From a bacterium UBP6_UBA1209 (lineage in GTDB: Bacteria > UBP6 > UBA1177), in NCBI GenBank assembly GCA_002309575.1, contig DBXP01000004.1, forward strand, positions 4,077 through 68,076: DNA of 64,000 nucleotides, given 5' to 3'. The position numbers were made by a program, and so were the translations under genes. Position 1 is the first letter of the stretch, and the number at the start of each line of letters is the position of its first letter. Positions 4,692 through 50,507 of this stretch are shown piece after piece. The notes beneath the pieces are model-generated. The model was not told the DNA's origin. It saw only the letters and a program-made list of their open reading frames with translations, and ran no database searches.

Positions 4692-4715
4692 AAACACTTT
4701 TTTCAGGAGGAAACA

Positions 4716-5957
4716 ATGGTAACCGTAAGACCTTTCAGAGCTATCAGACCGCGTGACGAAATCGCTTCCAAAGTCGCGGCTTATCCTTATGACGTTCTCA
4801 ATTCGGAAGAGGCAAGGGAACTTGCAAAAGACAACCCGGTCTCTTTCCTTCACATCAACAAACCCGAAATCGACCTTCCGAAAGGGACCGATCTCTATGA
4901 CGACAGCGTCTATGCAAAGGGAAAAGAGAATTTCCAGAAAATGATGAAGGAAGGCGTTCTCGTTCAGGACAAGGAACCGCACCTTTACATCTACCGCCAG
5001 GTTATGAACGGCCACGAGCAGTATGGTATCGTAGGCTGTGCAAGCGCTGACGACTACAACAACGACCTCATCAAAAAGCACGAGCTCACCCGTAAGAAAA
5101 AAGAGGACGACAGGACACGCCACGTAATCGAACTCAACATCAACGCAGGACCTGTTTTCCTTACCTACAGAGACAACAAACGCATTGATGAGCTTGTTGC
5201 AGAAGTCGTAAAAAATACTCCGGAAGTCGATTTCACGGCTGATGACGGCATCCGCCACACAGTTTGGGTGATCAAAGACAACAAGATCAACAACGAAATC
5301 ACGGGAACATTCTACAACGAAGTTCCGCTTCTTTACGTCGCTGACGGTCACCACAGAAGTGCAAGTGCTGCAAGAGCGAAGGCTGAAAGAATGAAAAACG
5401 ATCCGCACTGGAACCCGGAAAAGGAATACAACTTCTTCCTTGCTGTCTTCTTCCCGGCAACCCAGCTCAAGATCCTCGACTACAACAGAGTCCTTCTCAC
5501 GATGAACGGTCTCACCAAAGAAGAGTTCATGAAGAAAGTTCTCGAAAAGTTCGAAATCGTCCGCGAAGGCGAAGCAAGACCGAGATGCGCAAAGGAATTC
5601 GGCCTTTACATGGATAAAAAATGGATCACGATCAAAGCGAAAGACGGCACTTTCCCGGCTGACGATCCGATCGAAAGCCTTGACGTTGCTATTCTTCAGA
5701 ACAACCTTCTCGCTCCGATCCTTGGAATCGGCGACCCGAGAAGCGATGAGAAGATCGATTTTGTCGGCGGAATCAGAGGAACAGAAGAGCTCGAAAAGAG
5801 AGTCAACAGCGGCGAATGCACGATGGCTTTCAGCATGTTCCCGACCTCAATCGAACAGCTTATGAGCGTTGCTGACGCAGGCAGGATCATGCCGCCGAAA
5901 TCGACATGGTTCGAACCGAAGCTCAGAAGCGGACTTCTCGTTCACATCCTTGACTAA
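4716..5957 (+). CDS. DUF1015 domain-containing protein
   Basis: Characteristic N-terminus MVTVRPFRAIRP and length ~410 aa typical of DUF1015. Confidence 0.75.
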   Translation: MVTVRPFRAIRPRDEIASKVAAYPYDVLNSEEARELAKDNPVSFLHINKPEIDLPKGTDLYDDSVYAKGKENFQKMMKEGVLVQDKEPHLYIYRQVMNGHEQYGIVGCASADDYNNDLIKKHELTRKKKEDDRTRHVIELNINAGPVFLTYRDNKRIDELVAEVVKNTPEVDFTADDGIRHTVWVIKDNKINNEITGTFYNEVPLLYVADGHHRSASAARAKAERMKNDPHWNPEKEYNFFLAVFFPATQLKILDYNRVLLTMNGLTKEEFMKKVLEKFEIVREGEARPRCAKEFGLYMDKKWITIKAKDGTFPADDPIESLDVAILQNNLLAPILGIGDPRSDEKIDFVGGIRGTEELEKRVNSGECTMAFSMFPTSIEQLMSVADAGRIMPPKSTWFEPKLRSGLLVHILD

Positions 5958-6482: not shown

Positions 6483-6508
6483 TCTAAGATCCGGGATCCG
6501 GAGTCTGT

Positions 6509-9490
6509 TTAATATTCCTTTTTCGTCAGTTTCTCGTACATTCTGAAAAGCTCGGCAACGATCTCAGCTTCGCTCATTTTCGGATCAAAACCGTAAGCCG
6601 CCATAACAGCCTTGTCGTTCTCTTTGTGGGCTTGAAGAAGTTCAGGAAACAAATATGCCTTGTCGCCGTATAGTTGAGCAAGAGAACAATCGGCATACTT
6701 TGCCCGTGCATCCAAAATACTTTGTGCTGTCGCTTCAATTTTTGTTTTTTGTTTTTCTGTCGGATTACACCAAGGGAAAGTGTTATAAACATTGTTTACA
6801 GTATAACTATAATCACTTTTGAGACGGCAACAGATAGCCCTCATCCAAGCGTTATGAACATTTGAAGTCAAGATTCCAAAATGATAAAGAGTTCCATTCG
6901 GTAATATTCTTACTTTATCGCTACAAATTACAGATTCATCAAGATAGCCGATTGGAATATAGACTCTGCGTTCTGATGAGACCTGCGGAATAACGATAAA
7001 TTTGCCATTCGGAAAATTTTTAACATGAAACTTTGTTGGTTTTTCGGCTAATTTTATGGTTTGCGCACTTTTGCTTGCAAGTCGATATTTGCGCACAGCC
7101 TCAACACGCTTTAAACATTCGGGCAACTTGAATAGTTCCGACGGCTTGCAGTCGCCAAGATAGAGGATATAACGAAATTTGTTGTTTATAAATTCCTCGG
7201 AACCGATATAGCAGTGAAAATATTTTTTTGCTTGAGGCTCTTTTTTCAGAAATTCGTCTTTTTCTTCCTGCGTAAAGATATAGTTTCCGCCGTCAATCGG
7301 CTTGTTTCCTATTCCAACCTCCGGTACATTGCAGAGCGGTTTTTTCACACTTTCAACAAAAATATTAGGCGCATCCAAAAGATAACCGTTTATATTTTCG
7401 ACTTCTTTGAAAGTTTTATCTGCATTGTAAATTCGTTTTGTTTTATATTCTGCTCCGTCAGAAAACCCCACAATCACACAGTGAACATGGGCTTTTTCGG
7501 TTGATTCTGAATCCCATTTAAAAGTACTCCATGCAAAATCAATATGAAAACCTTCATTGAAAAGCATTTTCCATAAAATAGCCGTTTGTTCACCCTGCGT
7601 TATTGAGTTTGTTGAAACAAATGCGCATTTTGTGTTAGTGCCTTTTATCAATTCTGACGCTCGCTTATACCACGCAGAAACATAATCAAGGTTTCCCCTT
7701 CCGCGAAGTCCATTAAAAACATATTCCATATCTAATTTTTGCTGGCTGCCAGCTTCCATCCAGCGCGCTCCCACAAACGGTGGGTTACCCATGATGTAGT
7801 CGTAATGGTTTTTAGTCTTTTTTTGTTGCGTCTTTCCGATATTTATTTCTTCAGTTATGAGGTTTATCGTTTCGTATTTTTCTTCGCGCTCATGCACCTC
7901 CGCTGGATAAATCAGATTGGTCCTTTTTGCCGTTATCGTAGGAATATTTTCTTCCTCTTGCAGATATCGCCAGTCCATTCTGAGCGCATTTCCTTCAACA
8001 ATCGTCGCGCTTGTCGAAAGCGGCAGGAAATCGAGGTCTTCGTCAACAATCTTCTCGGTTTCCTTCATCATTTGCGATTCGGCGATCCAAAGAGCTGTTT
8101 TAGCGACAGTTACCGCAAAATCATTGATTTCTATGCCGTAAAACTGCGAGATTTTCACTTTTATCGGGGATCCGCCGTGACCGACAAACGTCTGAGTCCC
8201 GTACTGTGTCTTGTAGATGTTTTTCAGGATTTCGTTTTCCAGCCGCCGGAGCGAAATATATGTTTCAGTCAGGAAATTGCCGCTTCCGCAGGCAGGGTCA
8301 AGGAACGTCAGTGATGCAATTTTATTGCGCAGCTGCTCTAGACGGGAACGTTGTTTTGATGATATTCCGTTCACTTCGATCTTGCTCAGTGACCGGTACA
8401 GGCGGTTGCCAAGCGTAGTCGAAATACCGCAGATCTCATAAAATTCTTTTATCAAACTATCCAGAAACAGCGGATCGATCACTTTATGGATATTCTCGAC
8501 ACTCGTGTAGTGCATCCCGCCTTTTCTGCGTGTCTCAGGATTCAAAGTCGATTCAAAAACAGCGCCGAAAATCGTGGGCGAAATTTCCGACCAATCGAAG
8601 GGAGCGCAGTGATTTACGATGATATTTAGAATTTCATCACTAAAATTGGGAACTTCTATGTCTTCAGCCGCGAAAAGTCCACCGTTCACGTAGGGAAATG
8701 CCTTTAATTTCAGGTCATATTTGTCGCGGTTTTCCGGTTTTGTGTCCAATGCCTTGAAAAGATTGATGATTCCAAGTCTTAGATCAGTCAGATTAAACGA
8801 TTTTATATAGTCTTCAAAGCTTGTCCGTGTCTCAAAAAGCCCGGCATCCTCGGCATAAAGGCAGAAAACGATGCGGACACACAAAATATTCAGGCTTCTA
8901 AAGCTGTTTTCATCGGGATTTATGTACTCCTTGATGAGCGCGTCATAAAGCTTTCCTACAAGTTCGCCCGCTTTCAATGATACCTGTTCTTCAGGTGAAA
9001 CAGAGGTCTTTTGGGTGTCTGTCAAAAACTGCAAGCAGTCGAATTTATTCGGTAAATCCTCAAGCAGGAGCTGAACCGGCTCGTCATGCGGCTTTTCCAT
9101 GTCGTAAATCAGGAACTCCTGAAAGTTGCAGACGACGATCCAGTTCGGACGCAGCGAATTTGGCATTTCATCGGCATAACGTTTTGCCTGCCGGTAGGGG
9201 GTGAGCATAGCTCCGTCAGATTGTTTCGCCTCTTTCCGAAGATCGACATCTGAGCTTTTCTGCTCGATCAGAACCTTGGTTTCAGGAATATATGCATCAA
9301 TAAAACTCGTGTGCCTGAGTTGGACCTTCTTCTCAAATTCAATGTGTTCCGCAGGATTTTCCATTCCGAGAATTTTTCCAAGAAGATCTATCCAGAAACG
9401 TGCGGTTTCCTGCCTCTCGTCACCTCTATTTTTCCAGAAATCTGCGAATTCCTTAGTCACTTTTTTGCGGTTTACCGATGCTTTTGCCAA
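6509..9490 (-). CDS. MmeI-family Type IIL (IIG) restriction-modification enzyme (single-chain endonuclease + N6-adenine methyltransferase + target recognition)
   Basis: MmeI-like N-terminal PD-(D/E)xK region: FWIDLLGKILGM...IDAYIPETKVLIEQKS...NWIVVCNFQEFLIYDM. MTase motif I DPACGSGNFL and motif IV MGNPPFVG. 993 aa. AT-rich relative to flanks. Confidence 0.85.
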   Translation of the reverse strand: MAKASVNRKKVTKEFADFWKNRGDERQETARFWIDLLGKILGMENPAEHIEFEKKVQLRHTSFIDAYIPETKVLIEQKSSDVDLRKEAKQSDGAMLTPYRQAKRYADEMPNSLRPNWIVVCNFQEFLIYDMEKPHDEPVQLLLEDLPNKFDCLQFLTDTQKTSVSPEEQVSLKAGELVGKLYDALIKEYINPDENSFRSLNILCVRIVFCLYAEDAGLFETRTSFEDYIKSFNLTDLRLGIINLFKALDTKPENRDKYDLKLKAFPYVNGGLFAAEDIEVPNFSDEILNIIVNHCAPFDWSEISPTIFGAVFESTLNPETRRKGGMHYTSVENIHKVIDPLFLDSLIKEFYEICGISTTLGNRLYRSLSKIEVNGISSKQRSRLEQLRNKIASLTFLDPACGSGNFLTETYISLRRLENEILKNIYKTQYGTQTFVGHGGSPIKVKISQFYGIEINDFAVTVAKTALWIAESQMMKETEKIVDEDLDFLPLSTSATIVEGNALRMDWRYLQEEENIPTITAKRTNLIYPAEVHEREEKYETINLITEEINIGKTQQKKTKNHYDYIMGNPPFVGARWMEAGSQQKLDMEYVFNGLRGRGNLDYVSAWYKRASELIKGTNTKCAFVSTNSITQGEQTAILWKMLFNEGFHIDFAWSTFKWDSESTEKAHVHCVIVGFSDGAEYKTKRIYNADKTFKEVENINGYLLDAPNIFVESVKKPLCNVPEVGIGNKPIDGGNYIFTQEEKDEFLKKEPQAKKYFHCYIGSEEFINNKFRYILYLGDCKPSELFKLPECLKRVEAVRKYRLASKSAQTIKLAEKPTKFHVKNFPNGKFIVIPQVSSERRVYIPIGYLDESVICSDKVRILPNGTLYHFGILTSNVHNAWMRAICCRLKSDYSYTVNNVYNTFPWCNPTEKQKTKIEATAQSILDARAKYADCSLAQLYGDKAYLFPELLQAHKENDKAVMAAYGFDPKMSEAEIVAELFRMYEKLTKKEY

Positions 9491-9607
9491 GTTCCACCTC
9501 GTTAATAATGATTAAAACATGGCATTGTAGTGCATAAATTAATCGAAAACAAGTTTTAGATGCTTGTTATTTTCCCTTCATCCGTCAATTTCATCAATTT
9601 ATTCATC

Positions 9608-11671
9608 TTATTCCAAATCCCTTACGCAGTGAACCATTCCGCCGTCATTCATCTTATCAGCAGACAATATTGACTCCACTGGCACTAAAAACAGCACAAA
9701 AGCTTGTTCCTGAAGATCAGAACGGACAGATGAAGACCATTTAAAATCATGGTGCAGCAGGAGTTCTTCATCCGAATAATAAGTGGATCTGCAGTTTTCA
9801 AGGCAGTTTTCTGACAGACAGCCGCCTTTTTCGCTGACTTTACACGGGCCGTTCGTTTTGACATTATCAGATAAGGATACGATGGTTCTAAGTTCGTCGA
9901 TGTCAGGAAGTCTCCAGTTTTTATAGCCTGAATAGTCAAGATCTTCGCAGTATTTTTTCGCATTTTCCCATTTCATGCGACGCTGTTCCGGTAGCGCCCA
10001 CATGAACTTTTGTGAAGAATTTATGCACGGGAACCCGTTGCGGACACTGCAGTCTCCCACAGGCAGACACTTGTTGTCGGAGTTGAAATAATCATGTTTG
10101 CAGCCGCAGGTATATTCGTAAAAACTGGTTGCCACGCATGTCCCGTCACCGCCTTCCAAACCTTCACATTTTTCGCACGGGGTCATGCATCCGCTGCTGA
10201 TGTGGAAATAACCTTCTTCACACTGGCAGTATGCTTCATTCATAAAGCTGTCGGTCTCGCATTTTCCTGTAGAAAGTTCAGCGTCGGCGCACATATCCTC
10301 AGTACACTGTTCCACGCACGCTCCGGAATCATCTTTTCCGAATCCGTCAATGCAGGTGCAGCCGTCTTCTTTTAGAAAAAGTTCCGCATAAGAAGCGCAT
10401 TTTTCGCCGGTCCAGAGATGACCATCGCCGCACGGATTGGATGCGACGCACGCGACATTCATCGTATTCTTTTTACTTTCAATCACAGAATAGACAGATT
10501 GCCCGTTTGTCCAGGCGGAAGAGGGACTTCCTTCGACAGTGGAGGAAGACCATAAACCGCTGGTGCTGTAAAGTGTTGCAACTTCATTTTTGTTCGGCAG
10601 CCTCCAGTCGGAGATCCCTGCGTAAGTCAGATGCTCGCAGTAGTAGAGCGCGTCCCCCCAGTTTTTGCCAGAAACAGGTTCTTCCTGAAGAACAAGTCCA
10701 TGCTGGACGTTGTTTCGGATTTTATAACCGTCTCCAGAGAAAACCTGCCGGTAACTGCAGTGATCGAGACGCTTTTCAGCCGTTCTGACGCACCTGAACC
10801 ATGTATTTTCTCTCGGTGTACTTTGGGAATTTCCTGCAATACCGTTCTTAAAATCGATAAAGTGATAGTAAGTCACAGATGAATGACCTGCCGGCTGACG
10901 ACTGATATAGGTGAAAAAATATTCAGGCTGAGTATCGGGGAAATAGGTCTTGTCTATCGCCGGATTTGAGTACCCGATGTCGACCAGCGACAAGAGATCG
11001 GAATCAGTCGGATTTTTCCAGTCATAGTAACCTCCGAGCGGCGTTATGGAACTGCAATGTTTTTCAGCATATTGATCCCAGTTATATTCGTGCTGTTCAA
11101 GCGAGCTTTTTCTCTGCCACTCAAGCCCGGTGTTGTTGTCAACGACCGTTTCGCCGTCGTCGTACTGTTTGATGGTGTAGCTTCTCGGAACACATTTCCC
11201 CGCTTTCGCATATTGAGCATCCTGACCGTAGAAAGTTTTGCCCTCTTTCGGACATTCTATCTCCTGCTTCATGTCGTAGCACTTCGTCTGACCGGTGCAG
11301 ACTGTGCCGTAAAAGTTCGTAACGGGGAGGCATTTCTGCTCGCTGCTGAACCAGACATAGCTGCTTTTGCACTCGCAGGCATAACCTTTTCCTGACGCAA
11401 GACATTTTCCCGTCGAATTTTCAACACCTTTGCAAGGCTCGCCTTCACACGGATCCGGCTTTGGTTCTATGTCAGGATCGTTTCCCGGCGTATCGGAATC
11501 ATCATAATGTTCTGTATCGGTTTCATCATCATCGGCAAAATCTTCATCATCCATAACATCCTCATCACTGTCAGGCAGAACCGCCGCCACATCATCGTCA
11601 ACAGGCGTTTTTGAACCGCCGCCGCACGAAATAAAAAGGAAAATCAGCAGAAAGGAAAGAAGAGTTTTCAT
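9608..11671 (-). CDS. large secreted lipoprotein with three DUF1566 domains, EGF-like Cys-rich modules and poly-acidic N-terminal linker
   Basis: Signal and lipobox LLIFLFISCGGG. D/E-rich linker. Repeated DUF1566 signatures (YYDWKNPTDSDLLSLV; GISDWRLPNKNEVATLY; YKNWRLPDIDELRTIV) each ending in a C-V-R-type motif. Many CxxC/C-x-C EGF-like spacers. Confidence 0.8.
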   Translation of the reverse strand: MKTLLSFLLIFLFISCGGGSKTPVDDDVAAVLPDSDEDVMDDEDFADDDETDTEHYDDSDTPGNDPDIEPKPDPCEGEPCKGVENSTGKCLASGKGYACECKSSYVWFSSEQKCLPVTNFYGTVCTGQTKCYDMKQEIECPKEGKTFYGQDAQYAKAGKCVPRSYTIKQYDDGETVVDNNTGLEWQRKSSLEQHEYNWDQYAEKHCSSITPLGGYYDWKNPTDSDLLSLVDIGYSNPAIDKTYFPDTQPEYFFTYISRQPAGHSSVTYYHFIDFKNGIAGNSQSTPRENTWFRCVRTAEKRLDHCSYRQVFSGDGYKIRNNVQHGLVLQEEPVSGKNWGDALYYCEHLTYAGISDWRLPNKNEVATLYSTSGLWSSSTVEGSPSSAWTNGQSVYSVIESKKNTMNVACVASNPCGDGHLWTGEKCASYAELFLKEDGCTCIDGFGKDDSGACVEQCTEDMCADAELSTGKCETDSFMNEAYCQCEEGYFHISSGCMTPCEKCEGLEGGDGTCVATSFYEYTCGCKHDYFNSDNKCLPVGDCSVRNGFPCINSSQKFMWALPEQRRMKWENAKKYCEDLDYSGYKNWRLPDIDELRTIVSLSDNVKTNGPCKVSEKGGCLSENCLENCRSTYYSDEELLLHHDFKWSSSVRSDLQEQAFVLFLVPVESILSADKMNDGGMVHCVRDLE

Positions 11672-11780
11672 GACGGGACCTCACGAAAATTAAACAAAAA
11701 CGAGAAATATTATAGTGATATCAAAGTGGAAAAAAAGGAGATGTCTGCAACTACCTGACAGAAATTGCCCCGGCCTTTGT

Positions 11781-13118
11781 TTAAAGGCACATTGCCATGT
11801 AAAGCGGAAGATGCAGAATTCCGTCTTTTTCGGCGACATCTTTCGGGTAAAGAATGTAAGGAGTGCCGGTTTTTGCAGAAAATTTCCTCAAGAATTTGTC
11901 AAGCGATGCGTGGGAGCGGTAAGAAGCTGATTTTACTTCTATCGGTGAGATTTTTTTGCCGTTTGCGATAAGGAAGTCGATTTCTATGTGATTTTCCCGA
12001 TGAAGGTTGTCGCTTCGCGAGTAAAAATAGAGTTTATGACCGTTTGTGCGAAGCATCTGCGCCACGATGTTTTCCATGATCATCCCTTCGTTGATATCGA
12101 TTTTATCGAAGAGAACCGCCTTGTAGAGCTCGTTTGCGGTGTAGGATTTATCCATAAAAGTTAGCGTTACAAGAAGTCCTGTATCAGCCATGTAGTATTT
12201 CTGCGTCGAGTGTTCAGATGTCAGGGCAAGCCCGATGTTGGGATCTGTCGAATTGTAGCAGGAATTCGTGACCATAGCCTCGTTGAGCCAGATGAAAGAA
12301 TCCTCGTAACTTCTGAAACGGGCATTTTTGTCGATTGCGGAAAAAGTGTATTTTTTTTCCTTTTTTGAGAGCTGTCCGGGAATTTCGTCAAAAACTGCGT
12401 AAACTTTTTCCTCATACCCTGCCGCAAATTTGGAAATATCGTCGCGGTAAAGGCGTAAAATCTTTCTTTTTGCTTCGTCAGCTGCGGCAAAATCCTTTTC
12501 TTTGAGATATGCAAGGACTGACTGCGGCATTCCCCCTACAAGGGCATACTGCCTGAAATCATTCATTATTTTTCTGTGAAGCGCCTGACCTAACGGTTTC
12601 TTTTCTTCAAAACACTGCCGTATTAAAGGAAGTGTCGCCTCATCGCCCATGGCCCAGAGAAATTCCTCAAAATCAAGCGGAAACATCTCGACATGCTCTT
12701 CTTCCGACGGAATTATAATGTTTTCGGTGTTCTTTTTCAGCCTGATCAGCGAACCTGTTTCCATATAGTCATAACGCCCGTCAGCAACCAGATATTTTAT
12801 CAGCTGGCGTGCTCTCGGAAACTGCTGGACCTCGTCAAAAACGATCAGAGAGTCTCTTTCATAAAGTTTTGTAGAATAAAAAGATGAAAGTTTTGCTAAA
12901 AAAAAGTCGAGATTCGAACTTTCGTTTTCAAAAAGAGCAGTTATTTCCGGCGACACATTGCCGAAATCTATAATGATATGGCTTTTATACTCATGCTTTG
13001 CAAACAGACTTGCGATATAACTTTTTCCAACACGCCGTGCACCGTCAATAAGGAGAGCCGAAGAACCGCCGGACTTCGTTTTCCACTCAAGCATTTTCTG
13101 ATAAATTTTTCTTTTCAT
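11781..13118 (-). CDS. AAA+ ATPase, DUF4143-containing (COG1373-type ATP-binding protein)
   Basis: Walker A GARRVGKS in N-terminal AAA_14-like region. C-terminal DUF4143-like region. 445 aa. Confidence 0.8.
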   Translation of the reverse strand: MKRKIYQKMLEWKTKSGGSSALLIDGARRVGKSYIASLFAKHEYKSHIIIDFGNVSPEITALFENESSNLDFFLAKLSSFYSTKLYERDSLIVFDEVQQFPRARQLIKYLVADGRYDYMETGSLIRLKKNTENIIIPSEEEHVEMFPLDFEEFLWAMGDEATLPLIRQCFEEKKPLGQALHRKIMNDFRQYALVGGMPQSVLAYLKEKDFAAADEAKRKILRLYRDDISKFAAGYEEKVYAVFDEIPGQLSKKEKKYTFSAIDKNARFRSYEDSFIWLNEAMVTNSCYNSTDPNIGLALTSEHSTQKYYMADTGLLVTLTFMDKSYTANELYKAVLFDKIDINEGMIMENIVAQMLRTNGHKLYFYSRSDNLHRENHIEIDFLIANGKKISPIEVKSASYRSHASLDKFLRKFSAKTGTPYILYPKDVAEKDGILHLPLYMAMCL

Positions 13119-13270: not shown

Positions 13271-13345
13271 ATTACACCATGTTTTTAAGGCTCATTTTTC
13301 ACGATTTCGCTGGTGATTGTGGAACAAAAATAAATGGGACAGATC

Positions 13346-13804
13346 TTATCCTTTGACCGTTCTGAGGACCTCGGCTGCGTGACCTGCTGCCTTAACTTTG
13401 TTGAAAATATGAGAGATTTTGCCGTCGTTTTCGATGACATAGGTTGTCCGGACGACGCCCATGTGTTCCTTCCCGCACATTTTTTTGAGCTGCCATACAC
13501 CGAACTGGTTCAGTACCTCCTTGTCCTGATCGGAGAGCAGGATGATCTTGAGCCCTTGTTTTTCTTCAAATTTGAGGTGCGAAGCAGGGGAGTCAGGGCT
13601 TACTCCGAGGACAACGGTGTTCTCTTTTTTGAACTCCGGAAGAAGTTCTGTGAATTCCTTTGCCTCAAGCGTGCAGCCGGATGTGTTGTCTTTCGGATAA
13701 AAATAGAGAACAATTCTGTAGCCCGAAAAATCCGAGAGCTTTATCTCGGTACCGTGAGAATCCGTAAGCCTGAAATCAGGCGCCTTGTCACCGATGTTAA
13801 GCAT
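13346..13804 (-). CDS. bcp: thioredoxin-dependent peroxiredoxin Bcp
   Basis: GDKAPDF...YFYPKDNTSGCT peroxidatic Cys motif. 152 aa. Confidence 0.9.
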   Translation of the reverse strand: MLNIGDKAPDFRLTDSHGTEIKLSDFSGYRIVLYFYPKDNTSGCTLEAKEFTELLPEFKKENTVVLGVSPDSPASHLKFEEKQGLKIILLSDQDKEVLNQFGVWQLKKMCGKEHMGVVRTTYVIENDGKISHIFNKVKAAGHAAEVLRTVKG

Positions 13805-13805
13805 G

Positions 13806-14576
13806 TTAGTGAATCTCCTTTACGTTGAAAAGCGCGACTGCTACCGAGAGGATTATAGCGACCCAGAGCAGCGCGTAAAATGTTGCAAAACCTATGCTCA
13901 GCTGATCGATCCCGACTGAGTAGACGAGGTTGTCCTTGATATTGAAGTGCGAAAAGTCAGGCAGGATGTAGCGGAGCGCGTTCACAACCTTTATCGTGAA
14001 CTCCGAAGATCTTTTGGTGATCGCATAGACCAGGTTGTAAGAGGTCGCGCCGATGATGTAAAACGAAATCGTAAGCATTGCTGCAACTGCCTGTTCTGTC
14101 AGCGTCGAGCAGAGAACTGCCGCAGCAATGACGGTCGTCGTCTGCAAAAAGATGGTGTAAAATGCCGGGATGAAGGTGATGAAACGGCCTGCTCCGCCGT
14201 AGATGAAGAGCAGGATCGCAAAAATCACCGCCATGAGCGCGATCTCCACAATGATCATGAGCGACATACCGCAGAATTTGCCGATTATGTACTCCGCCCT
14301 GGATATTGGACGTGCCAAAAGCGGGTGGAGAGTCTTTTCCTTAAGCTCTTTGCGAACGAGCGAAATACCCATGAAAATTGATAAAACAGTCGAGAAGATC
14401 TCTATTGTTCCAAGACCGATATCGCTGATGATGTCGAGCTCGCTTCCGATTGTCATCTGTGTGATGCCGATGCCGATAGCTATGATGAAAATCGCAAAAA
14501 AGAGCAACAGATACAGCACCTTGTCTCGAATCATCTCAAGAAATGTGTAGTATGCGACAGCTAATATTCTGCTCAT
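13806..14576 (-). CDS. ABC-2 type transporter permease
   Basis: Six predicted TM helices. Immediately downstream of the ABC ATPase (2-nt gap). Confidence 0.75.
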   Translation of the reverse strand: MSRILAVAYYTFLEMIRDKVLYLLLFFAIFIIAIGIGITQMTIGSELDIISDIGLGTIEIFSTVLSIFMGISLVRKELKEKTLHPLLARPISRAEYIIGKFCGMSLMIIVEIALMAVIFAILLFIYGGAGRFITFIPAFYTIFLQTTTVIAAAVLCSTLTEQAVAAMLTISFYIIGATSYNLVYAITKRSSEFTIKVVNALRYILPDFSHFNIKDNLVYSVGIDQLSIGFATFYALLWVAIILSVAVALFNVKEIH

Positions 14577-36445: not shown

Positions 36446-36470
36446 GTTCATTCCAACGGGGGACAAAATG
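36446..36470 (+). promoter_or_regulatory. conserved translation-initiation leader copy 1 (GTTCATTCCAACGGGGGACAAAATG)
   Basis: 23/25 nt identical to 37829-37853. Includes the SD (GGGGGA) and the ATG of the Sel1-repeat gene. Confidence 0.4.
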
Positions 36471-37343
36471 AAAAAAATTGTGATTTTTGTTGTTGTTTTG
36501 CTTGCGATGACATCGGTTTTCGCTCAGATGCCTGAAACAGACCAAGAGGCTTGCGAATATGCCAGAAACAACGACAATGCCAAGAACTGGCTTGAATATA
36601 TAGGCAAATTTCCAAAAGGAACGTGCCTTGCCGAAGCTCAATACAGTCTCGGTCTTATTTATCAACAAGGAAACGGAGTTCCTCAAGACTCTGCGGAAGC
36701 CTTTAAATGGTATAAGAAATCAGCAGAACTCGGCAACATTCATGCCCAGAACAATTTGGGACGTATGTATTTCAACGGAGAAAGTGTCCCACAAAACTCT
36801 GAAGAAGCCTTCAAGTGGTACAAGAAAGCAGCCGAACAAGGAAACACTCAATCCCAATATAATCTCGGAGTTATGTATGTTAATGGTCAGGGAATTCCCA
36901 AGAACTTTGATGAAGCAATAAAATGTTTTTTTAACGCAGCGGAAAGTGGTTTAGCTGCGGCACAAAACGAGATAGGAATCATGTACTACTTCGGTGAAGG
37001 TGTTAAACAGGACTATCAAACAGCTGTGAAATGGCTTAAACTGGCAGCAGAACAAGGTTATGCTCCGGCTCAATTCAATTTTGGACGTATGACTTTTAGC
37101 GGGGAAGGAATCCAGCAAAACTACGCAGAAGGTATAAAATGGATAACTAAATCGGCTGAACAAGGTTATATGAAAGCTCAAATCACTTTAGGAGCTATAT
37201 ATACTGACGGAAAAGTAGTCCGGCAGAATCTTGCGGAGGCAAAAAAGTGGTTCAAATATGCTGCTGACCAGGGTTCAGACAAGGCAAAATCCTATCTTAT
37301 GAAAATTGAAGCTGCGGAAAAAGCGGCAGAGAAAAATAAATAA
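36468..37343 (+). CDS. Sel1-like repeat (SLR/TPR-like) secreted protein
   Basis: Signal peptide MKKIVIFVVVLLAMTSVFAQ. At least 7 Sel1 repeats (AQYSLGLIYQQGNGVPQD.AEAFKWYKKSAEQG...). Confidence 0.85.
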   Translation: MKKIVIFVVVLLAMTSVFAQMPETDQEACEYARNNDNAKNWLEYIGKFPKGTCLAEAQYSLGLIYQQGNGVPQDSAEAFKWYKKSAELGNIHAQNNLGRMYFNGESVPQNSEEAFKWYKKAAEQGNTQSQYNLGVMYVNGQGIPKNFDEAIKCFFNAAESGLAAAQNEIGIMYYFGEGVKQDYQTAVKWLKLAAEQGYAPAQFNFGRMTFSGEGIQQNYAEGIKWITKSAEQGYMKAQITLGAIYTDGKVVRQNLAEAKKWFKYAADQGSDKAKSYLMKIEAAEKAAEKNK

Positions 37344-50432: not shown

Positions 50433-50507
50433 GGGCTCGTAGCTCAGAGGGAGAGCACTGCTTTGACGTAGCAGGGGTCAGTGGTTCAATCCCACTCGGG
50501 CCTACCA
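50433..50507 (+). tRNA. tRNA-Val (anticodon GAC)
   Basis: Manual fold: acceptor GGGCTCG/CGGGCCT, D-arm GCTC-AGAGGGA-GAGC, anticodon arm CTGCT-TTGACGT-AGCAG, T-arm AGTGG-TTCAATC-CCACT, encoded CCA. Confidence 0.9.

Follow-up and report, generated by a model that had tools for sequence, protein, structure and literature searches.

A resident MmeI-family Type IIL restriction-modification gene with a putatively exchanged recognition half in an uncultured rumen bacterium

MmeI of Methylophilus methylotrophus (TCCRAC 20/18; PDB 5HR4) is the prototype of the Type IIL restriction-modification enzymes. Dozens of members of its family have been characterized, one crystal structure is known, and more than 8,000 homologues were scored in this analysis. 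Members cleave ~18 to 21 nt downstream of an asymmetric site and need two sites for cleavage; the host is protected by methylation of one top-strand adenine (PMC2731913). In Microcystis aeruginosa PCC7806, the paralogues IPF4888 and IPF5080 are 98.5% identical except for a target recognition domain (TRD) that is 55% identical, a pattern interpreted as recombinational TRD exchange (Morgan & Luyten 2009). A further gene of the family is routine by itself, and TRD exchange within the family was already proposed in 2009. The window analyzed here, a contig stretch of 64,000 nucleotides, contains such a gene. Read from its sequence and that of its relatives, it very probably encodes a Type IIL enzyme that works alone in its uncultured rumen host, from a resident locus and with an exchanged recognition half.

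Chromosomal setting and mosaic structure of the gene

The open reading frame encodes 993 aa (Table 1) and lies in the interval 6483 to 9607, which is exactly the space separating the two flanking genes. TTG at 9490 is the sole start codon past the upstream stop, and the N-terminus that it gives aligns with that of MmeI; a start at TTG, not ATG, was counted against the preferred reading. The short hairpin at the other end of the gene is placed between two convergent stop codons, and a promoter scan returned no more matches than shuffled sequence. Several elements of the original prediction were borne out: the gene is flanked by two DUF1566 lipoprotein genes (Pfam Lcl_C plus lipoboxes, with signal peptides LLSC/GG and FISC/GG), it is convergent with the upstream plus-strand operon, of which the 174-aa Lcl_C gene is the last member, and no integrase or transposase was found within ~10 kb of it. 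The nearest tRNA is at 50433.

Table 1. Features of the MmeI-family locus, in window positions
Feature	Position	Strand	Evidence
Lcl_C/DUF1566 lipoprotein gene, 174 aa	5958..6482	+	Pfam Lcl_C, lipobox, synteny
Short GC-rich hairpin, possible shared terminator	6490..6502	+	Terminator-like scan; weak consensus match only
MmeI-family Type IIL restriction-modification gene	6509..9490	-	Open reading frame, five Pfam MmeI domains, PADLOC, 5HR4, Foldseek
MmeI_C, C-terminal helical domain, aa 912-990	6521..6757	-	Pfam, 1.8e-18
Putatively exchanged cassette, aa 577-955: C-terminal methylase lobe, TRD, part of C domain	6626..7762	-	BLASTP, DNA identity, GC
MmeI_TRD, target recognition domain, aa 706-908	6767..7375	-	Pfam, 7.4e-70
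MmeI_Mtase, gamma-class N6-adenine methyltransferase, aa 379-688	7427..8356	-	Pfam, 5.6e-86
Clade-specific insertion, ~47 aa (aa 512-557), between GNAL and motif IV	7820..7957	-	HMMER break
MmeI_hel, helical spacer ("arm"), aa 199-273	8672..8896	-	Pfam, 7e-19
MmeI_N, PD-ExK nuclease domain, aa 13-187	8930..9454	-	Pfam, 1.6e-38
Shine-Dalgarno-like GAGGTGG	9494..9500	-	3 nt 5' of TTG start, read from sequence
Lcl_C/DUF1566 + EGF-like lipoprotein gene, 687 aa	9608..11671	-	Pfam, lipobox
AAA_14/DUF4143 ATPase gene, PADLOC candidate PDC-S01, GC 0.425	11781..13118	-	Pfam, PADLOC

Four contigs of sister strains (L001, L082, L083 and L084) have the gene at the corresponding site, next to the 174-aa Lcl_C gene in each; the related genomes are metagenome-assembled genomes (MAGs) labeled "UBP6" or "Spirochaetales". 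Flanks of the sister contigs are 91 to 96% identical in DNA and the N-terminal 576 residues of the enzyme are equally conserved, which argues that the gene has been there for a long time. Judged by this synteny, it has long resided in a small variable stretch that runs from the DUF1015/Lcl_C operon to an AhpC/ABC-transporter block. The presence/absence polymorphism concerns its neighbors, not the MmeI gene. Positions 9672 to 11753 of the window, with the 687-aa Lcl_C gene, are missing in L001, L082 and L083, where only a 64-bp 3' remnant of the gene is left; in L001 this remnant points to deletion. The deletion junction in L001 has no clear direct repeat. In L084 the same gene is rearranged into genes of 513 and 192 aa. 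The AAA_14 gene directly adjoins the MmeI gene in L001, L082 and L083 and is mostly deleted in L084. The window probably shows the fuller, older arrangement. A contig scan seeded with the DUF1015 neighbor returned only more distant rumen MAGs and no empty-site allele. In the more distant relatives (L002 to L012), synteny ends just after the small Lcl_C gene and no MmeI homologue lies within 10 kb of DUF1015.

The main alternative is that the whole gene is a recent foreign arrival inserted between two paralogous lipoprotein genes, as originally predicted. The situation in L002 to L012 is in keeping with this, as are the frequency of the family on plasmids (478 PLSDB records), its occurrence in some phages, and a composition toward the low end among genes of the window (GC of 0.421 against 0.489 ± 0.036 in the 49 other genes; GC3 of 0.438 against 0.579 ± 0.078, third lowest of 50). 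However, all plasmid and phage matches are below 60% identity, the gene has no flanking repeats, integrase, transposase or tRNA, and its codon-usage likelihood (-1.106) is inside the range of the other genes. Occupancy of one site in four sister contigs, an N-terminal part conserved like the flanks, and variable presence of the large Lcl_C gene make a recent insertion improbable, and this part of the original prediction found no support. An ancient acquisition by an ancestor of the sister strains is possible and compatible with long residence.

The prediction that the gene is richer in AT than its neighbors holds for the average, but the low GC is moderate, and it is confined mainly to an internal segment, not spread over the whole gene: GC is 0.385 over 6620 to 7789 and 0.444 in the remainder. 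The proposed test of composition found GC and GC3 low and codon usage unexceptional. The same segment stands out in comparison with the sister strains, with DNA identity of 0.43 to 0.77 over 6620 to 7789 and 0.90 to 1.00 on either side. By BLASTP against sister allele P0003, identity is ~97% over aa 1 to 576, ~50% over aa 577 to 955 and ~95% over aa 956 to 993, and the edges of the divergent cassette coincide with the conserved motifs NPPFVGAR and AHKEND. Alleles P0003 and P0004 have the cassette ends in common and differ in the core TRD (aa ~678 to 860). Best matches to the separate domains come from different homologues, one of which (P0070) reaches 80% identity in the TRD but 52% in the N-terminus. 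This mosaic indicates that the recognition half has been replaced by recombination at NPPFVGAR (motif IV) and AHKEND within a species-level group. A search with the cassette by itself returned no near-identical donor; the best whole-cassette match was 68%, and many matches were short. A search of the window for silent TRD copies, flanking repeats and homopolymer tracts able to support a shufflon or phase variation found none apart from two T7 runs. Low GC within a gene can thus signal an exchanged module and not the recent arrival of a whole gene.

Domain architecture and proposed mode of action

Pfam recognizes all five MmeI domains, in canonical order and each above its gathering score (E values from 1e-18 to 6e-86), and Eco57I and N6_Mtase also match in the methylase region. 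PADLOC assigned residues 7 to 991 to REase_MTase_IIG (1122 bits). The family is defined by E < 1e-20 and full-length similarity to MmeI (PMC2731913); such similarity was found for the 993-aa protein with Pfam and in a phmmer search of the PDB, where MmeI (5HR4) was the sole match (E = 3.6e-173; query residues 8 to 353, 381 to 512 and 565 to 990). An AlphaFold model (pTM 0.65) had 5hr4 as its top Foldseek match (E = 3.4e-63), with pLDDT of 85 to 95 in the TRD and C domains and low confidence in the helical arm (162 to 303). The PD-ExK triad D65/E76/K78 is intact, aligns with the documented catalytic residues D70/E80/K82 of MmeI and is invariant in 61 homologues, as are the two methylase motifs that were examined individually (FxDPACGSG for motif I and NPPF for motif IV expected, in the order X, I to VIII): DPACGSGNFL begins at residue 398 as motif I, and residue 569 marks NPPF, motif IV. 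Residues matching the conserved E25 and E51 of MmeI are also intact. The TRD directly follows the methylase and ends at an FPFP-like motif (NTFPW at 903 to 907, aligned with NTFPW of MmeI), after which comes the helical C-terminal region. The gene has the makings of a single-gene system: its neighbors are lipoproteins, the AAA_14 ATPase, AhpC and an ABC transporter, and neighborhood searches found no separate methylase, S subunit or BREX/DISARM partner nearby. By these sequence features the gene clearly belongs to the well-known MmeI family and is intact, with nuclease and methylase in one polypeptide. The original identification is accordingly upheld by Pfam, PADLOC, 5HR4 and Foldseek: a single Type IIL/IIG polypeptide in which the motifs of the nuclease and of a gamma-class N6-adenine methylase are undegraded and followed by a C-terminal TRD.

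It is conceivable that the protein acts in effect as an orphan or epigenetic methyltransferase, its nuclease disabled or unused, so that cassette exchange would alter the methylome and not restriction. Homologues annotated only as "methylase" or "class I SAM-dependent DNA methyltransferase" fit this idea, as do the TTG start, the several natural MmeI-family genes known to be disrupted, and the many homologues of 410 to 660 aa without a nuclease part returned by the cassette search, although many of the short homologues are on contigs of a few kilobases and may be truncated gene calls. Yet the open reading frame is full length, the catalytic residues and the equivalents of E25 and E51 are in place, and comparison with the sister allele shows purifying selection throughout the nuclease, arm and methylase parts (dN/dS of 0.04 to 0.06; 0.057 in the nuclease domain), and we regard a disused nuclease as slightly less probable even than recent insertion of the whole gene. 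Least probable of all is a role as one component of a multi-gene defense system, whether BREX/DISARM-like or paired with the AAA_14/DUF4143 ATPase (PDC-S01): partial PADLOC and NCBIfam matches to DrmMI and PglX exist, and the similarly GC-poor ATPase gene immediately precedes the MmeI gene on its strand in L001, L082 and L083, but PglX scores reach at most 39.9 bits (BREX_1_MTaseX of NCBIfam, cut-off 500; others lower) against curated cut-offs of 400 to 900, DrmMI matches cover only the shared methylase/TRD part (~559 to 969; ≤139.7 bits versus 1122 for REase_MTase_IIG), no PglZ, BrxC or DrmA/B/C and no other BREX or Drm gene is nearby, the ATPase is deleted in L084, separated by a lipoprotein gene in the window and not adjoining the 70%-identical homologue P0005, and enzymes of the MmeI family function on their own (PMC2731913).

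The analysis shows architecture, motifs, synteny, mosaic identity and purifying selection directly, whereas we infer that the protein is active, how far away it cuts, that it methylates a single strand and which sequence it recognizes. By analogy with characterized members of the family, the stand-alone enzyme would bind an asymmetric 6-bp site via its TRD, and the adenine at site position 5 would be flipped out and methylated on the top strand only (PMC2731913), a mark that would identify host DNA as self. The N-terminal PD-ExK domain, held on the helical arm (a role taken from PMC2731913), would cut ~20/18 nt downstream in unmodified DNA with at least two sites. Across strains, one nuclease/methylase chassis is therefore combined with recognition modules that differ in predicted specificity.

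A separate feature is the insertion of ~47 aa that directly precedes catalytic motif IV, a position counted against the preferred reading. MmeI lacks it, and HMMER breaks its alignment with 5HR4 at this point (query 512 to 565 versus MmeI 471 to 477). Among homologues its length falls into classes of 43/44, 67 to 71 and 80 to 89, and AlphaFold predicts it to be disordered (pLDDT ~27, without secondary structure). On a more tentative reading, the insert might serve in regulation or in binding a partner, a role undescribed for the MmeI family.

Predicted recognition sequences

Specificity was read with the published MmeI-family residue code (MmeI numbering in parentheses). At position 1, S808/H822/V823 (723/737/738) match exactly the Ser/His/Val combination found in EsaSSI and MchCM4I, for which the expected motif is given as GCCRAC with G at position 1 (S1 Table, PMC4833311). 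At position 2, I727/K730 (642/645) form an Ile/Lys pair, which reads A in EsaSSI (recognition sequence GACCAC), MchCM4I and AquIII and C in one characterized enzyme, RmuAI; the latter was counted against the assignment. Position 4 has the pair K859/S895 (774/810), and Lys774 with Ser810 specifies C. At position 6 the pair K891/D893 (806/808) is of the K-D type that "exclusively specifies G:C", and the conserved L890 (805) fits a target A at position 5. Position 3, with Q836/D858, falls outside the published pairs, so its base is uncertain and written as (G?); Asp at 773 correlates with G, its usual partner being Lys or Arg. The predicted site of the window enzyme is GA(G?)CAG, and the code assigns four of the five variable positions with confidence, so that the original view that specificity cannot be read from sequence was too pessimistic. 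Sister alleles have Ala/Ala/Gln at position 1, the combination of ApyPI and RlaII (expected motif ACCRAC, with A at position 1; S1 Table, PMC4833311). Their E-R pair reads as C at position 6 and their Arg810 as a purine at position 4, and their predicted sites are AA?GAC and A?GRAC. It is also worth noting that position-1 transplants into MmeI were all inactive (PMC4833311), meaning that residues beyond the contact set also matter.

Three motifs are thus predicted among five sampled contigs, a natural allelic series at one locus with the same chassis and three recognition modules. More tentatively, and with a probability that we put a little short of even, the locus might serve as a population-level specificity switchboard, in which one conserved chassis stays at a fixed chromosomal site, the recognition half (motif IV to AHKEND) is replaced again and again by homologous recombination, a core-TRD block is nested within it, and the insert is possibly regulatory. 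If so, co-existing strains of one species would differ in their Type IIL specificities and methylomes. The predicted specificities may be usable for strain-resolved methylome binning of rumen metagenomes, and the natural breakpoints at motif IV and AHKEND could guide the engineering of chimeras.

Comparison with described systems

The enzyme shares the five-domain order of MmeI and aligns with it over residues 8 to 990, with the triad, motifs I and IV, Leu805 and NTFPW conserved; its TRD aligns to MmeI 680 to 884 without gaps, as expected for a six-base recognizer. In contrast, overall identity is just ~37 to 50%, only Lys645 and Leu805 of the base-contact residues match, the disordered insert is an addition, and residues 575 to 577 are A-R-W where MmeI has the minor-groove contacts K487/S488/K489 (KSK). 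EsaSSI (GACCAC 20/18) and MchCM4I have, in the published tables, position-1 and position-2 residues identical to those of the window enzyme, on which the prediction of GA as the first two bases is based. Conversely, the window enzyme has K-D (G) at position 6 where EsaSSI reads C, and its Q/D at position 3 is unlike any published pair.

TRD swaps on a conserved catalytic chassis are likewise known from the Type ISP enzymes LlaGI and LlaBIII and from "domain movement" of methyltransferase TRDs in Helicobacter pylori. These belong to other enzyme families (Type I, III and IIG in H. pylori), and LlaGI and LlaBIII are ATP-dependent translocases, whereas the window enzyme is without a helicase domain. 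Another parallel is the IPF4888/IPF5080 pair, in which, as at the window locus, the chassis is near-identical and the TRD region replaced. IPF4888 and IPF5080 are two paralogues in one genome, while the window locus presents alleles at one orthologous chromosomal site across strains, with at least three variants, nested breakpoints and a replaced block that starts from motif IV and so includes the C-terminal methylase lobe. As read here, the series documents in the wild the route of TRD exchange that Morgan & Luyten (2009) proposed.

Family assignment and setting of the gene

The interval 6483-9607, exactly the space separating two flanking genes, holds a single long open reading frame (ORF). 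TTG at 9490 is the sole start codon following the upstream in-frame stop, and the N-terminus from this start (MAKASVNRKKVTKEF...) aligns with MmeI residue 10 and with the N-termini of close homologues. All five MmeI-specific Pfam domains occur in canonical order, the PADLOC Type IIG REase-MTase model scored 1122 bits across residues 7-991, and MmeI (5HR4) was the only solved structure matching by sequence (E = 3.6e-173). An AlphaFold model built on an alignment of 61 homologues (pTM 0.65; pLDDT 85-95 in the target recognition domain [TRD] and C domain) also had 5hr4 as its best Foldseek match (E = 3.4e-63). Residues D65/E76/K78 align with the MmeI catalytic residues D70/E80/K82 and, together with motifs I and IV, are intact and invariant in the 61-sequence alignment; the objection that these motifs might be degenerate therefore fails, and the family named in the original prediction stands. 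The enzyme adds a new member to a family that is already well characterised. It departs from MmeI in a stretch of ∼47 residues between GNAL (residue 500) and NPPF, where MmeI has only ∼5. This segment is predicted to be disordered (pLDDT ∼27 without secondary structure in the AlphaFold model), is unchanged across sister alleles and falls into three length classes among homologues (43/44, 67-71 and 80-89). Published work on the family indicates that short insertions between conserved elements are tolerated.

Features around and within the MmeI-type gene, with residues assigned to each base of the predicted recognition site
Feature	Position	Strand	Remark
DUF1015 gene	4716-5957	+	conserved stretch 4701-5957
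Lcl_C/DUF1566 lipoprotein gene, 174 aa	5958-6482	+	downstream of, convergent with MmeI-type gene
MmeI-family gene	6509..9490	minus	993-aa ORF
GAGGTGG	9500-9494	minus	precedes TTG start
Lcl_C + EGF-like lipoprotein gene, 687 aa	9608-11671	minus	upstream of MmeI-type gene
AAA_14/DUF4143 ATPase gene	11781-13118	minus	beyond 687-aa gene; matches PADLOC candidate PDC-S01
MmeI_N	aa 13-187		Pfam
MmeI_hel	aa 199-273		Pfam
MmeI_Mtase	aa 379-688		Pfam
MmeI_TRD	aa 706-908		Pfam
MmeI_C	aa 912-990		Pfam
Motif I, DPACGSGNFL	residue 398
Insert before methylase motif IV	7820-7957 (aa 512-557)		clade-specific
Motif IV, NPPF	residue 569
Site position 1	S808/H822/V823 (MmeI 723/737/738)		predicted G
Site position 2	I727/K730 (MmeI 642/645)		predicted A
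Site position 3	Q836/D858 (MmeI 751/773)		G, uncertain; pair without published precedent
Site position 4	K859/S895 (MmeI 774/810)		predicted C
Site position 5	L890 (MmeI 805), conserved		target adenine, A
Site position 6	K891/D893 (MmeI 806/808)		predicted G

The 174-aa Lcl_C gene ends a plus-strand operon (Pterin_bind, DAC, YbbR, APS kinase, amidohydrolase, DUF1015), and beyond the ATPase gene lie AhpC, an ABC transporter, a beta-propeller protein and the mraZ/dcw cluster. Both Lcl_C proteins carry lipoboxes, and domain and tRNA scans around the MmeI-type gene found no integrase, transposase or nearby tRNA, confirming the flanking DUF1566 lipoprotein genes, the orientation against the upstream operon and the lack of mobility genes that had been noted earlier. 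No second methylase, S subunit or BREX/DISARM partner was found nearby; membership in BREX or DISARM was rejected on model scores and missing partners. The described AT-richness held for base composition (GC 0.421 against 0.489 ± 0.036 in 49 other genes; GC3 0.438 against 0.579 ± 0.078, third lowest of 50) but not for codon usage, the synonymous-codon likelihood (-1.106) being unremarkable, and GC was uneven within the gene (0.385 at 6620-7789, 0.444 elsewhere). The ATPase gene, whose match to the defence candidate PDC-S01 has E = 3e-110, is comparably low in GC (0.425), and a gene at 36468-37343 (+) lies below the MmeI-type gene in GC3, with the window's minimum of 0.360 (GC 0.410). Two long ORFs on opposite strands overlap almost fully (13334-13828, +; 13346-13804, minus); the minus-strand ORF matches the AhpC/Redoxin gene called in sister contigs, and so the other is probably spurious.

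The same locus in sister strains

Among more than 8000 scored homologues, the nearest were 79%, 79% and 76% identical, setting aside an identical NCBI copy. Synteny with the window and flank DNA identity of 91-96% mark the four contigs bearing these nearest homologues (L001, L082, L083 and L084) as sister strains or a sister species, and all four carry an MmeI-type gene at the same site, adjoining the small Lcl_C gene. The presence/absence differences among these contigs lie in the neighbours, and the proposal that a restriction gene was dropped between two lipoprotein genes in this genome was not upheld. L001, L082 and L083 lack window 9672-11753, which spans the promoter and the 687-aa gene except for its final 64 bp, and there the ATPase gene directly adjoins the MmeI-type gene. 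Retention of the 3′ remnant points to loss by deletion. Besides the 64-bp remnant, the junction has a TT filler, and it shows no clear direct repeat; the 687-aa Lcl_C/EGF-like gene is a strain polymorphism. In L084, the ATPase gene is mostly missing (a 91-aa ORF occupies its position), and rearrangement has left two genes, of 513 and 192 aa, in place of the big lipoprotein gene. Of the versions of this small variable region, the window's thus seems the most complete; the ATPase and restriction-modification genes give the region a defence flavor. Functional coupling of these two neighbours is unsupported, as L084 has lost the ATPase gene and none lies beside another homologue, P0005.

In eleven more distantly related rumen MAGs (labelled UBP6 or Spirochaetales), synteny ends just past the small Lcl_C gene, with no MmeI homologue within 10 kb. 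A separate observation concerns DUF1015, compared across loci L001-L012. In eleven rumen MAGs of other species-level groups its protein is 98-100% identical and its DNA 92-96% identical, spanning exactly the gene and 15 nt upstream, against just 54-75% protein and 65-77% DNA identity in neighbouring housekeeping genes. Differences at four-fold-degenerate sites were 0.19-0.30, versus a saturated 0.52-0.63 in neighbours; relative to same-species L001 its divergence (0.227) exceeded that of the flanks (0.07-0.12). The pattern reflects either cross-species flow of a single gene or extraordinary constraint. Of the window's genes, DUF1015 also fits the codon usage best, and it shows a strong A>T skew.

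A mosaic gene and its predicted recognition sites

Relative to sister allele P0003, the window enzyme is ∼97% identical over aa 1-576, ∼50% over 577-955 and ∼95% over 956-993. DNA identity falls to 0.43-0.77 over 6620-7789, with 0.90-1.00 either side and 100% in the 90 bp immediately upstream of the NPPF codons. These shifts in both protein and DNA place the breakpoints at NPPFVGAR (motif IV) and AHKEND, both strongly conserved, which bound an exchanged cassette. Sister alleles P0003 and P0004 agree in the outer parts of the cassette but not in its core TRD (about 678-860). P0004 (L084 8001-11012) also carries a divergent helical-arm patch (aa ∼232-300; dS 1.07, compared with 0.04-0.09 for the nuclease and methylase regions next to it), a second recombined patch. 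The top TRD match among 120 homologues, P0070, is 80% identical with an N-terminus at just 52%; a database search with the cassette found no near-identical donor (best match 68%). Many cassette homologues (P0121-P0240) are just 410-660 aa, comprising methylase C-lobe, TRD and C domain without nuclease, some on long contigs (up to 355 kb); they may be gene calls cut short or true derivatives that lack the nuclease.

Outside the cassette, the remaining chassis has a dN/dS of 0.04-0.06, nuclease domain included; this purifying selection argues for a working rather than a decaying enzyme. A methylase-only role is unlikely, given an intact, selectively constrained nuclease domain. The MmeI family is common on plasmids, with 478 records, and occurs now and then in phages; no plasmid or phage homologue was >60% identical to the window enzyme; recent insertion of the whole gene is contradicted by synteny in the sister contigs and by a chassis conserved to the same degree as the flanks.

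Which residues read each base has been defined by the structure of MmeI bound to DNA and by covariation studies that preceded it. The window TRD aligns with MmeI 680-884 with zero gaps, making residue mapping straightforward. The position-1 set is exactly the Ser/His/Val of EsaSSI and MchCM4I, which S1 Table of PMC4833311 places under the expected motif GCCRAC, with G at position 1. At position 2, Ile/Lys reads A in EsaSSI, MchCM4I and AquIII (single exception: RmuAI, C), Asp773 goes with G (usual partner Lys or Arg), the Lys774+Ser810 combination specifies C, and the K-D pair specifies G exclusively. The original prediction held that specificity cannot be read from sequence; the comparison with characterised homologues that it proposed instead yields a predicted site, GA(G?)CAG, methylated at the A. 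From family cleavage distances (Table 1 of PMC2731913), cutting should occur ∼20-21/18-19 nt downstream. Sister alleles P0002 and P0003 have Ala/Ala/Gln at the position-1 residues (predicted A, as in ApyPI and RlaII), Met645 (predicted A), Gln774/Arg810 (a purine, probably G) and an E-R pair (predicted C), for a predicted AA?GAC; P0004 would read A?GRAC. By the published code, then, window and sister alleles are predicted to recognize different sites. Position-1 residue transplants into MmeI were inactive, and context therefore matters.

Recombinational TRD exchange in the MmeI family was proposed earlier from two Microcystis paralogues (PMC2731914). The locus described here is a natural allelic example of that known process, and a tidy case of recognition-module exchange.
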